From assembly GCA_037200965.1 (NCBI GenBank), contig JBBCGK010000001.1, forward strand, positions 448,001 to 512,000: DNA of 64,000 bases, given 5' to 3'. The stretch comes from a bacterium (GTDB lineage: Bacteria; Patescibacteriota; Minisyncoccia; Phycocordibacterales; Phycocordibacteraceae). Position numbers and translations under genes: made by a program. The notes under the pieces were generated by a model that was given only the letters and a program-made list of their open reading frames with translations, was not told the origin of the DNA and made no database searches. Shown here in pieces: positions 52,725 through 55,700 of this stretch. Numbering within the stretch: the stretch's first letter is position 1; every line of letters starts with the position of its first letter.

Positions 52725-55700
52725 TTCTGTCCAGGCGGAACCGCACCGTGCCGGTCGACAGCTCCGCCGCATACGGGCCGTCTTCGGCCTTCACCGCCTG
52801 CGCGGCGTCCTGCGGGGAAAGCCCGAGGGATTTCCTCGCCTCCGCCACCGCGCGGGTAAACGCGCGCTCGTCCCCTTCGGCAATGAGGCCGGGCGTAAGC
52901 GCGGTGTCGAGCGAGATTCCGGCGGCTCCCGTCACCACCTCCTTCACATTCACCTCTTCCGCAAGGATTTTCGCGAGTTCGGACGACAGTTCTCCCGGAA
53001 CAAAGAGCTTTGCGAGCGGCTGGCGCACTTTCATATCGGCCTTCTGGCGAAGCTGGAGCGCTTCTGACGCGAGCGAGCGCACTCGTGCCATGTCTTCGAT
53101 AAGTCGGGCGTCGGGCGTGGCGGCTGCGGAAGGCCAGTCAGCGAGGTGCACGCTTTCCGGATCGCTTTCGCTTCGGACGGTTTTAAATACGTCCTCGGCA
53201 AGAAACGGCGCAAACGGAGCCAGGAGCAGGGCTCCGGTATGGAGCGTCTCGCGCAGCACCTTAAGCGCGGCGACGTCGCCGTCCTTTACGCGATCGCGTA
53301 TGCGCCGCACGTACCATTGGGAAAGGTCTTCGAAGAGTCTTGATACCGAACGGGTCGCGTCATACAGCTCGTACGCATCGAGCGCTTCCGTAACCTCACG
53401 CGCCGTAGCGGCCGTCCGGGCGTTCATCCAGACATCTGTCGGCTGCAGGGTACCTTCCGCATGCTGAGTCTCGCCTTTGAAGAGAGCGTAGAAACGAGCA
53501 CTCTGCTCGAACCAGTTGAGAGTGCGCACCGCCTCCTTGACCGTCTTCTCGTCGAAGTTCTTCGAATCCCCCGCCCGGTTCACGCTGTACATCCAGAACC
53601 GGAGCGCATCGACGCCCCATTTTTCCATCTCGGCGAACGGCTCGACGACATTGCCCTTGCTCTTGCTCATCTTCTGTCCGTTCGCATCAAGCAGGTGTCC
53701 GAGGCAGATGACATTCTTATACGCGGTACCGCGCTCCATGAGCGTCCCGACCGCAAGCAGGGTATAGAACCAGCCGCGCGTCTGGTCGATCGCTTCGGAG
53801 ATGTAATCGGCGGGATATGCGATACCCGACAGATATTCGGAAAGCGATGCGCCGCCTTTCTCATTCGCGCCTTGGGCGAACGGCATCGCTCCGGAATCGA
53901 ACCACACATCCATTACTTCCTTCACGCGCCGAAGCTCCGTGCCTTTGTCGGACAGAAGCACGACGTCGTCGATATACGGACGATGCAAATCGAGCTCGTA
54001 GTCTTCGTTGTGCGGGAGCGGAACGAAATCAAACTTCTTAGCCTTAGCATGTTCGATAAAATCATTCTCGACTTGATATGCGAGAATTTCCGCGCGCGAT
54101 TTGCCGGAGGCAACGTCAAAAAGAGCCTGCGCCGCCGCATCATGCGTAACGATAAGAATGTTTTTGCTGCTATAGTCTCGCTCGAGAGCGTACAGCGCCT
54201 CACCGACACGTCGCTTTATGGAAACGAATGATTCAAACCCTCCCAAAAGAGTTTCTTGCATCCAGCTTTCCATGGTAGGTACCGCAGCCCAGAATTCAGT
54301 GCGCGGTTTGCCTTCGAAGGTACCGGTGTCGAATTCACGAAAGCGTTCATCAACGACAACCGAGGATTCTGGAAGATTAAGCGTGCGCGCAACGATATCG
54401 GCGGTCTCGCGCGTTCGCAGGAGCGGAGAAACGACAATCAGATCAATCTTTTGTGTTGTAAGCCTGTCAGCTTCACGCTGTACGTCTGTCCTTCCTTGCT
54501 CTGTGAGGTGGCAAGTTCCGGGAAATACGCTGCTGAGAATATTTTTGACGTTATTCTCGGCTTCGCCGTGCCGTATCACGAAATATGTATTCCCGCTTTT
54601 CTTCGTCCGCGCCTTAAGCTCCTCGATGGAGCCGATGACAACCTGCTCCTCCCCATTTTCGCTTCGCCACACCGGCAGAGGAGTGCCCCAATACCGTTCC
54701 CGCGATATCGCCCAGTCCTTCGCGTTCGCGAGCCACTCCCCCATTCTTCCTTCGCGGATATGCGCCGGTACCCAGCCTATTTTGTTGTTTTCTTCGACGA
54801 GCGTTCCGCGCAGGTCCTGCATGCGGATATACCACGAATCGCGCGCGTAATAGATGAGACGGGTCTTGCAGCGCCAGCAGAAGGGATACGAGTGCTCGTA
54901 CTTGCCCTTTGCGAACAGGAGTCCGCGCGCGGCAAGATCTTTGACGATATCGACTGCGACGTCTTCGTCCGCAGCGAACCGGTTTTCGAGGAATCCGGTA
55001 CCCGACACGAACCTGCCTTGGGGATTCACGAGATGGACCTTCGGGAGACCGACCTGATTCCCAAGGTCGAAGTCTTCCTGTCCGTACATAACGGCCGTAT
55101 GCACGATGCCGGTGCCGTCCGTGGTCGTGACGAAATCCGCAGCATAGACTTTGAAAGCCGCACCGAATCGCGGCTTCTCGCTCTCCGGCGCGAGCTCCTT
55201 CGCAAACGGATAGAGCGGCTCGTACTGAAGCCCGGTCAATACCGTTCCCGCAAGCTCGGCGGCCGGTTTCCCAAGGCCCAGTTTTTCCGCAAGCGCGGTC
55301 GCGGCGACGAGATTCTCGCCGTCCTTCTCGTATATGCCGTACGTGATATCGCCACCCACCGCGAGTCCGACGTTCCCCGGAAGCGTCCACGGCGTCGTGG
55401 TCCATGCAAGCAGGTGCGTATTCCCAGGGAGTCCGTTCTTCTGCGGGTCGATCGCCTTGAACTTCGCCGTTATCGTAAGGTCTTTCACGTCTTCATATCC
55501 CTGCGCAAGCTCATGGGAAGAAAGAGCCGTCTCGTCGCGCGGGCACCACGGCACCACCTTATAGTCCTTGTAGACGCGCCCGTCCTTCGCGATTTTCGCG
55601 AAGATATTCCACAGCACCTCCATATAGGAAGGGTCGAAGGTGAAATACGCCTTACTCTGGTCGACCCAGTATCCGATGCGCGTCGTAAAGCGAGCCCACT

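Follow-up and report, generated by a model that had tools for sequence, protein, structure and literature searches.

The closest described relatives of the enzyme reported here are the type-2 (eukaryote-like) isoleucyl-tRNA synthetases (IleRS2; PDB entries 1ILE and 8C8U-8C8W), which combine a connective polypeptide (CP) core, a CP1 editing domain, CP2, an uninterrupted CP3, and an anticodon domain, and among which a subclass has a noncanonical class I signature motif, G/AXHH. The G/AXHH form of this motif in IleRS2 raises the Ki of mupirocin up to 1000-fold, and the hyper-resistance that accompanies it has been shown experimentally (Brkic et al., PMC10485003). CP3 corresponds to residues 473-534 of the Candida IleRS (PMC7191050) and 459-526 of the yeast enzyme (PMC7955072), it varies in structure among IleRSs (PMC7191050), and the CP2-CP3 linker, ARDWNVSRNRYWG, lines the tRNA-CCA/reveromycin site (PMC7955072). 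We analyzed a 64,000-nucleotide stretch of contig JBBCGK010000001.1 (assembly GCA_037200965.1, positions 448,001 to 512,000; hereafter, the window) from an ultra-small bacterium of the Patescibacteriota, in which ileS encodes an IleRS2 that has these domains, and a signature motif of the form G-I-H-H, but whose CP3 holds an enzyme of ~199 residues, a histidine phosphatase, and has lost its zinc-knuckle cysteines. To our knowledge, bacterial aminoacyl-tRNA synthetases (aaRSs) almost never bear a second, unrelated catalytic center, and nesting of such a center within the catalytic body is rarer still.

Results

Identity, fold, and catalytic residues of the nested domain

The nested His_Phos_1 domain and its C-terminal linker occupy residues 500-698 of the ileS product (~199 residues; 53992..54588, on the minus strand like all other ileS features given below), with boundaries from alignment to insert-less IleRSs of the candidate phyla radiation (CPR) and an identity supported by Pfam, structure prediction with AlphaFold2 (AF2), and Foldseek. 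The match to PF00300 (His_Phos_1) extends over residues 502-674 and positions 2-173 of the 194 in the profile (E=7.1e-31; 107.8 bits versus a cutoff of 21.7). The original prediction, made by reading the sequence, had placed a histidine phosphatase domain with an RHG...H signature inside IleRS, between the GTPLPVW and DVWFDSG blocks, at 53992-54594 (about 200 residues). The Pfam match bears out this identification, all of the sequence strings that it quoted are present, the position between the two blocks is upheld, and the boundaries obtained by alignment are essentially the same.

The residues expected of an active enzyme are all in place. R505 and H506 (54568..54573) belong to the RHG motif, in which conservation and alignment to the phosphatase PhoE mark H506 as the predicted phospho-accepting nucleophile; R557 (54415..54417), in an SPLxR motif, aligns to an Arg of PhoE and is the second phosphate-binding Arg; E584 (54334..54336), the predicted general acid/base (proton donor), lies in RFREFDTG, which aligns to RLREIHLG of PhoE; and H648 (54142..54144), the second catalytic His, lies in IVTHD, which aligns to IVTHG. 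Among 28 orthologues (62-70% identity), R505-H506-G507, R557, E584, and H648 are invariant, as are G531, S553-P554, G616, and R626 within the insert, and the catalytic set is invariant or at least 90% conserved among the best 150 representatives clustered at 50% identity. The insert is lineage-specific, but it is not devoid of catalytic residues, the finding by which the original prediction would have been refuted. Pairwise identity is 41% in the insert versus 71% in the rest of the protein, so that the insert diverged about twice as fast; because the catalytic residues stayed fixed while their surroundings drifted this far, catalysis appears to have been maintained, and the conservation pattern indicates that the nested domain is very probably an active phosphatase.

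Modeled alone with AF2 from 105 sequences, the insert attains a pLDDT of 88.6 and a pTM of 0.87, which agrees with the earlier suggestion of an independent domain. In the full-length AF2 model (28 sequences), it is the best-defined part, with a pLDDT of 80-94, versus an overall pTM of 0.39 and values below 50 in the Rossmann core. From these models, the insert is predicted to fold as an autonomous domain. Its closest PDB relatives by sequence are PhoE (1EBB/1H2E, E=5e-11), followed by the phosphoserine phosphatase PspA and CobC. A Foldseek search of the PDB with the insert model likewise ranks PhoE first (E=4e-14, TM score of 0.73 for 1H2E and 0.73-0.75 for 1EBB/1H2E, 25% identity), and the matches that follow are small-molecule phosphomonoesterases of ~200 residues (mycobacterial hydrolases, PspA, Rv2419c, CobC, and a riboflavin-pathway HFP). 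Of the 317 PDB matches that this search gave at E<=0.001, the 50 listed are without exception members of the histidine phosphatase superfamily. PhoE (YhfR) of Geobacillus stearothermophilus, a member of branch 1 of the superfamily, has the same fold, size, and R-H-G/R/E/H residues as the insert, but it is free-standing whereas the window domain is nested in a synthetase, and its substrate range is not transferable to the insert because the two are only ~25% identical. The insert is acidic (pI of 5.1), and the family median of ~6 is similar to that of outgroup controls. Overall, the insert is a complete PhoE-type (branch 1) histidine phosphatase domain in an otherwise intact IleRS2.

Candidate assignments to more specific families were rejected. 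The scores fall far below cutoff for cofactor-dependent phosphoglycerate mutase (dPGM_arch, 77-82 versus 225 bits; TIGR01258, 23.6 versus 81.7; PRK01295, 30.7 versus 316), CobC alpha-ribazole phosphatase (TIGR03162, 72-76 versus 162.9), PspA phosphoserine phosphatase (PhserinePhPspA, 45-49 versus 350), and SixA phosphohistidine phosphatase (TIGR00249, 38-42 versus 74.5), and because all four groups of models fail in this way, no specific family assignment is possible. The description "PGAM-like" in the original prediction therefore holds at the level of the superfamily but not in the sense of a mutase, PhoE being the nearest solved relative. The best NCBIfam match of the insert is to NF005567, a bifunctional RNase H/acid phosphatase, with E=1e-23 over the phosphatase half and a score of 84 bits against a cutoff of 326.

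The synthetase body

The ileS gene (52714..56085) is one continuous reading frame on the minus strand, identified as such from the open reading frame, TIGR00392, Pfam, and PDB matches, and its 1123-residue product is identical to the deposited NCBI protein MEJ0053637.1. It exceeds the curated NCBIfam cutoff for IleRS (TIGR00392, 817.3 versus 621.4 bits), and the next-best NCBIfam models are those of MupA/MupB, which are mupirocin-resistant type-2 enzymes. In Pfam, tRNA-synt_1 is split by His_Phos_1, with Anticodon_1 and a weak match to DUF5915 also present. The best PDB matches of the synthetase body are IleRS2 of Priestia megaterium (8C8W, E=3e-208) and the T. thermophilus enzyme (1ILE), both ranking ahead of the IleRS1 entries 8C9F and 1FFY. 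The Escherichia coli enzyme, against which the insert was originally judged, is an IleRS1, and the proper comparator is a type-2 enzyme, in which the site of the insertion is the ~60-residue CP3 (PMC7191050, PMC7955072).

The class I signature motif, read from the sequence, is the noncanonical G-I-H-H at residues 54-57 (55915..55926), and among the 28 orthologues, G54 is at least 90% conserved and H56/H57 are invariant. The KMSKS motif is intact at residues 805-809 (53659..53673), with K805-M806-S807-K808-S809 invariant in the same set, as are the CP1 editing motifs of IleRS (the W228 motif and H329/D338). With signature, KMSKS, editing motifs, and anticodon domain all there, the synthetase part looks fully functional, and from motif conservation and the 71% identity of the body, we infer that aminoacylation of tRNA-Ile has been kept despite the insertion. 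Because the signature motif has the G/AXHH form described in PMC10485003, mupirocin hyper-resistance is predicted, by analogy, for the whole CPR clade with the G-I-H-H motif. A separate peculiarity concerns the first zinc site of the CP core, where the family consensus is PWCPRCGTAL and C184 is replaced by Asp in the window IleRS (55534-55536, minus strand); the other ligands of the CP core, C181, C403, and C406, are retained.

Insertion site and boundaries

CP3 exits the catalytic core after the WxISRxRYWG linker, which lines the tRNA-CCA pocket, and reenters it at DVWFDSG, which forms the isoleucine pocket. Its N-terminal half, residues 468-499 (54589..54684), aligns to WVCQACGKEE...ELKARATK of T. 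thermophilus, and its C-terminal half, assigned by alignment to residues 699-725 (53911..53991), runs into DVWFDSG. The insertion point is the middle/distal loop of the CP3 subdomain. With residues 500-688 removed in silico, the flanking parts form one unbroken alignment with residues 412-568 of the T. thermophilus IleRS (E=6e-43), and when four insert-less CPR IleRSs are compared with the window by tblastn, they match in two blocks, with the break at 54577-54604 on one side and 53991 on the other. In a local CP3 alignment, the insert-less form reads ELEKLSGKKLD|DLHKPYID, and the nested form resumes at DLHRPYID after L698. The CxxC...CxC zinc knuckle of CP3 is kept in T. thermophilus and in the insert-less IleRSs of Moranbacteria, whereas all four of its cysteines are lost in the nested enzymes.

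The chain returns to CP3 through a conserved C-terminal linker, residues 688-698 (53992..54024), in which P689, P691, H692, N693, Y696, and E697 are at least 90% conserved and L698 is invariant among the 28 orthologues. Alignments show that this linker is missing from both insert-less IleRSs and free-standing phosphatases. The two linkers, SGN and VPLPHN[DE]DYEL, are more conserved than the phosphatase domain itself (0.77-0.86 versus 0.54), which suggests, at the level of sequence, that the phosphatase may be docked on IleRS in a defined geometry.

The GC content falls to 0.50-0.52 over the insert (53900-54650) versus 0.58-0.66 in the ileS flanks, and across the whole window it swings between ~0.44 and 0.68 over a few kilobases. 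Relaxed constraint on the fast-evolving insert is one possible cause of the dip, mosaic composition another.

Prevalence and architectural variants

The nested architecture is shared by every one of the 120 best homologues of the window protein, all of which contain PF00300 (61-70% identity over full coverage; 1097-1161 residues). Their source names are Patescibacteria, Paceibacterota, Minisyncoccia, Kaiserbacteria, and Parcubacteria, and most are deposited as "class I tRNA ligase family protein." A HMMER search with the insert alone retrieved 641 representatives at E<1e-10, and among the best 150 (50%-identity clusters), 111 have IleRS flanks, these being all of the fused representatives in that set. 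The architecture also occurs in 14 independent species-representative genomes, and a Peregrinibacteria-type genome (L087) takes it beyond the Paceibacteria. In CPR bacteria of the Paceibacteria type, nesting is an old trait found throughout the lineage. In L087 itself (5507-9358; Peribacteraceae metagenome-assembled genome JAQTSK010000002.1), ~240 extra residues lie between the phosphatase match and the C-terminal half of the synthetase, and these may represent either another module or a duplicate of the phosphatase.

Several IleRSs depart from the single-copy arrangement. Three have two to four tandem phosphatase copies (P0152, P0214, and P0189), and in P0225, a second copy is situated elsewhere, after the KMSKS region and before the anticodon domain. 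Other modules also occur: a P-loop kinase (AAA_18/AAA_33) is nested beside His_Phos, after DVWFDSG, in P0203; a GNAT domain and an IS200-type Y1 transposase domain are present in P0206, which also bears His_Phos; and a Nudix domain is nested near the CP1 entry of the IleRS of L007 (9129-12564). In the CPR, IleRS seems to act as a hub that gathers extra domains.

The same phosphatase family is also found fused to TsaC (Sua5/YrdC), the enzyme of N6-threonylcarbamoyladenosine (t6A) synthesis, in only four clusters. TsaC forms a second fusion hub in the CPR (P0241 and P0386-P0501); in most copies its partner is an MGMT-type DNA_binding_1 domain, and its other partners are TruB, a 2H cyclic phosphodiesterase/2',5'-RNA ligase, Nudix, GNAT, and methylpurine glycosylase.

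Gene neighborhood and origin

Among the matches to the insert alone are free-standing phosphatases of ~185-205 residues that begin with Met and end directly after the last strand, and a profile built from 15 of them retrieves the family in Moranbacteria, Portnoybacteria, and Nanoarchaeota. Such CPR/DPANN proteins (e.g., P0315 of Moraniibacteriota CP064989.1 and P0278 of Portnoybacteria) are 33-40% identical to the insert and share its conserved positions and its terminal beta-strand motif, GE.R, but they are separate polypeptides without the SGN and VPLPHN[DE]DYEL linkers.

In these relatives, the phosphatase gene precedes ileS in the same orientation (L001, L003, L005, L007, and L009). The order is L33, phosphatase, IleRS, Zeta/AAA_33 kinase, and RecO in Moraniibacteriota CP064989; ArgRS, phosphatase, IleRS, Nudix, and RecO in another Moranbacterium; ArgRS, a helix-turn-helix protein, a phosphatase whose gene overlaps ileS by 4 nucleotides, and RecO in Portnoybacteria (L005); ArgRS, phosphatase, two Nudix genes, and the IleRS with a nested Nudix domain in L007; and ArgRS, phosphatase, a 221-residue protein of unknown function, HIT, Nudix, IleRS, and RecO in a further locus. 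In addition, 80 loci from a scan of species-representative genomes were classified by tblastn into 31 free-standing CPR, 14 nested CPR, and 35 non-CPR loci. Nearly all of the 31 free-standing loci have ArgRS directly upstream, and in 20 of the 23 whose sequence extends far enough, IleRS follows on the same strand. In the 14 nested loci, argS usually abuts ileS and the space for a separate gene is absent, and in the 35 control loci (Actinomycetota, Eremiobacterota, and others), neither ileS nor argS is present within 7 kb. The adjacency of phosphatase and synthetase genes in relatives suggests that the two enzymes work together.

In the window, no separate His_Phos, HIT, Nudix, or AAA_33 gene was detected by tblastn in any part of the 64 kb. 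Immediately downstream of ileS is recO (52164..52772, minus strand; RecO_N, E=1.5e-13 in Pfam), which also follows ileS in L001, L003, L005, L009, and most loci of the species-genome scan, and this conserved ileS-recO synteny ties the window to the argS-phosphatase-ileS-recO arrays. We consider it quite likely that the nested domain derives from the phosphatase gene of an ancestral array of this kind, an operon neighbor of ileS, and was relocated into CP3. A neighbor-joining tree of 282 domain copies separates the CPR/DPANN sequences from 12 of 13 outgroup sequences, and nested and free copies interleave in it at low resolution.

Two further observations concern the surroundings of the free-standing gene. 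Between it and ileS (L011-L040) lies a variable island of 0.3-6 kb whose contents include SpoT-type HD (HD_4), Nudix, NYN RNase, and 23S-rRNA-IVP proteins (e.g., L012 8105-8608, L015 8347-8823, and L038 7630-8106). In two DPANN/Nanoarchaeota-type contigs (L006 5719-7285 and L010 5716-7296), the phosphatase is the middle member of a conserved trio, between aEF-1beta (EF1_GNE) and a HIT-family hydrolase; the phosphatase family is, thus, tied to translation and HIT in archaea too.

Other genes of the window

Continuing from ileS on the minus strand (49703-52772), the window contains recO, a Sulfotransfer_4 gene, a DUF11/CLIPPER-type surface protein, and then a class II synthetase. Portnoybacteria L005 has a parallel order (ileS, recO, DUF7619/CLIPPER protein, and tRNA-synt_2b), and the sulfotransferase gene (51613-52167) seems to have been inserted into this otherwise conserved array. 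Farther away are a class II synthetase gene (48277-49674), an AI-2E transporter (46572-47621), a MetRS-like class I synthetase gene (45141-46571, minus strand), and, directly downstream of the last, a Cas1 gene (44030-45085, minus strand; E=1e-63 in Pfam).

Discussion

Function of the nested phosphatase

We propose that the nested domain would work as an independent phosphomonoesterase by the standard phosphohistidine mechanism, in which H506 would attack the phosphate, E584 would protonate the leaving group, and water would then release inorganic phosphate, while IleRS would go on charging tRNA-Ile. The substrate would most likely be a small phosphorylated molecule linked to the aminoacylation cycle, our first guess being a phosphomonoester derived from an adenine nucleotide, for example AMP or ribose-5-phosphate, and tethering would colocalize and co-dose the phosphatase with an enzyme that makes, or is inhibited by, this substrate. 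The Nudix, HinT-type HIT, SpoT-type HD, and P-loop kinase genes recruited to the locus, sometimes into the same polypeptide, would then form a nucleotide-processing neighborhood.

Several observations place a small nucleotide-derived substrate first: the structural neighbors are all small-molecule enzymes, the domain is acidic, the partners process nucleotide derivatives, and the archaeal homologues occur in an aEF-1beta/HIT context. The recurrent partners are a Nudix of the NudF/NudE-type ADP-ribose pyrophosphatases (2YVM, E=2e-11), a HinT-type HIT protein, a SpoT-type HD protein, and a small P-loop kinase, whose products include AMP and ribose-5-phosphate. Moreover, because the phosphatase is present in one to four copies and at two or more insertion sites, a dosage-type hydrolase fits better than a single, precisely aimed active site. 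The original prediction had suggested an extra activity on, for example, a nucleotide or aminoacyl-tRNA; the genomic context favors a nucleotide-related small-molecule role over one at RNA ends. Our best overall explanation, which we hold with middling confidence, is that a small-molecule phosphatase, still active, was acquired from a neighboring gene of the operon and probably acts on a nucleotide-derived by-product of aminoacylation; the functional coupling to IleRS through such a substrate, taken by itself, is proposed more tentatively.

A number of points weigh against this explanation. Tethering is not essential, since sister lineages evidently make do with a free-standing form that acts in trans, and CPR genomes fuse genes promiscuously, as TsaC, with its MGMT-type, TruB, 2H, Nudix, GNAT, and His_Phos partners, illustrates. 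Gene order in a translation "super-operon" (SmpB, IF3-L35-L20, argS, ileS, and recO) can persist between uncoupled genes, and some of the genes found in the slot beside ileS (hemerythrin, response regulator, AOX-like, and LssY_C) are clearly unrelated. Nor is the substrate readable from the sequence: all specific NCBIfam phosphatase models score far under their cutoffs, and the conserved pocket residues give no clue to specificity because they are those of the entire PhoE/CobC group. Finally, HD replaces the usual HG after the second His in the window protein, and the full-length model (pTM of 0.39) gives no usable geometry between the phosphatase and synthetic sites.

Alternative explanations

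Some of these same points suit the foremost alternative, that an active housekeeping phosphatase (for sugar phosphates, phosphoserine, or nucleotide salvage), unrelated to IleRS, came to be nested in a permissive loop and was retained in streamlined, fusion-prone CPR genomes for its guaranteed coexpression, without catalytic coupling. Consistent with it are the free-standing version acting in trans, the promiscuous fusions (at least six partner domains for TsaC, and IleRSs with GNAT, IS200-type, kinase, or Nudix modules), the unrelated genes in the intergenic slot by ileS, and the metabolic roles of the nearest characterized relatives (PhoE, PspA, Rv2419c, CobC, and the riboflavin-pathway HFP); CP3 itself is probably permissive because its structure varies among IleRSs (PMC7191050). 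The association is, however, specific and old, with ileS near the phosphatase in none of 35 non-CPR loci versus 20 of 23 free-standing loci in the CPR, where 14 more are nested. Nesting in an essential enzyme is, moreover, much rarer than end-to-end fusion, yet all 111 fusions are to IleRS; conservation is higher in the linkers than in the domain; one enzyme and one locus have attracted several other nucleotide-processing enzymes; and the archaeal homologues adjoin translation (aEF-1beta) and HIT genes. On balance, we regard a fortuitous passenger as unlikely, though still a serious rival.

A role in healing tRNA appears more doubtful than this. Toxins of the toxSAS type pyrophosphorylate the CCA end of tRNA, and the CCA-adding enzyme of E. 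coli contains an HD domain that acts as a 2',3'-cyclic phosphodiesterase and a phosphatase. The nested domain might act as an antitoxin or repair enzyme: when tRNA-Ile has been damaged or modified by a toxin, it would clear the CCA end of a 2'- or 3'-phosphate, or of a pyrophosphate, and thereby make the tRNA chargeable by IleRS again, and the neighboring kinase, Nudix, HIT, SpoT-type HD, and 2H proteins would be further tools of RNA-end repair. Genes for SpoT-type HD, NYN RNase, and PNK-like P-loop kinase proteins do occur at the locus, the phosphatase family is fused to TsaC (itself also fused to a 2H cyclic phosphodiesterase), the best NCBIfam match, although below cutoff, is to the phosphatase half of an RNase H/acid phosphatase, and CP3 starts and ends at the CCA-end/isoleucine pocket (PMC7955072). 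The structural neighbors, however, are all capped small-molecule enzymes, two to four tandem copies and a second insertion site speak against a single positioned active site, and TsaC-His_Phos clusters number only four. The published structures considered report no contact of tRNA with CP3, and the acidity of the domain, unlike an RNA-binding module, is weak evidence in the same direction. We also know of no branch 1 member of the superfamily that acts on RNA ends. A CPR IleRS that served as the hub of a built-in system for tRNA-end surveillance and repair, or of an antitoxin system, is thus doubtful to the same degree.

Equally in need of consideration, and improbable, is a built-in pyrophosphatase or phosphoanhydride hydrolase that would cleave the pyrophosphate (PPi) of Ile-AMP formation and so pull activation forward in energy-poor organisms. 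Some histidine (acid) phosphatases cleave phosphoanhydrides, pyrophosphatases occur fused to other adenylyl-transfer enzymes, and IleRS and TsaC, the two enzymes to which this family is fused, both form adenylates and release PPi; PPi is also released by the product of the neighboring argS. Against this, no branch 1 relative that we retrieved is a pyrophosphatase, PPi diffuses freely and a single free pyrophosphatase is normally enough, and this explanation does not account for the domain being borne by IleRS alone among ~20 PPi-releasing synthetases.

It is highly improbable that the insert is an inert structural or regulatory module that stabilizes CP3 in place of the lost zinc knuckle or senses a ligand: the nested enzymes do lack the four CP3 zinc-ligand cysteines kept in the IleRSs of Moranbacteria and T. 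thermophilus, and the window protein has HD instead of HG after the second His, but it is exactly the catalytic residues that are invariant against a background of 41% identity, as expected of maintained catalysis and not of a scaffold. An artifact (assembly chimera or frameshift, intein, or misjoined reading frame), to which the GC dip over the insert might point, is scarcely conceivable given the continuous frame, the identical deposited protein, the same junctions in hundreds of independent assemblies, and, in keeping with the earlier remark that intein blocks are lacking, the absence of Hint/intein matches in the Pfam scan, an insert that starts with T/K-Y-F, junctions without Cys/Ser/Thr nucleophiles, and an HN pair (692-693) that precedes E/D and sits within the linker.

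Significance and comparison with known systems

In full-text searches of the literature on IleRSs or aaRSs with histidine phosphatase, phosphoglycerate mutase, or Nudix domains and on the CPR and Patescibacteria, we found no description of this architecture, and the recent specialist papers on IleRS2 evolution that were consulted (PMC10485003 among them) do not mention a nested phosphatase. The nested proteins are public in databases yet unrecognized, and neither their origin from an operon neighbor nor the fact that IleRSs nest other nucleotide-processing modules in parallel seems to have been reported. The nesting is ancient and lineage-wide, with purifying selection on the active site, and it comes with a natural experiment, in that sister lineages keep the enzyme separate in the same operon slot and others nest Nudix, kinase, or GNAT modules, offering a testable case of operon neighbors turning into nested domains. 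It points to an unrecognized biochemical link between isoleucine charging and the turnover of phosphate esters and nucleotides in organisms of minimal metabolism. If the substrate proves to be an aminoacylation by-product or a tRNA end, this would be a new type of synthetase-associated activity, and in the case of tRNA-end repair, the first aaRS with an intrinsic substrate-repair activity. In any event, a large family deposited as "class I tRNA ligase family protein" merits proper annotation.

Three described systems invite comparison with the window IleRS. (i) The NCBIfam class NF040702, "ileS_w_GNAT," is likewise an IleRS with an extra catalytic domain, but domain and site both differ; no acetyltransferase domain was found in the window IleRS by the Pfam scan, and at 283 bits against a cutoff of 1999, it is not a member. 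(ii) The bifunctional RNase H/acid phosphatases (NF005567 and PRK07238; Rv2228c type) join a phosphatase of the same type to a nucleic-acid enzyme, but by end-to-end fusion with RNase H and not by nesting, and the match of the insert to them is, as noted, far below cutoff. (iii) The methionyl-tRNA synthetase of Mycoplasma penetrans (PMC7694997) carries an aminotransferase domain that is terminal, not nested, and that supplies the amino acid substrate, whereas no phosphorylated isoleucine precursor is evident in the present case. The two have in common a reduced-genome bacterium whose synthetase bears a metabolic enzyme domain, one that is active in M. penetrans.

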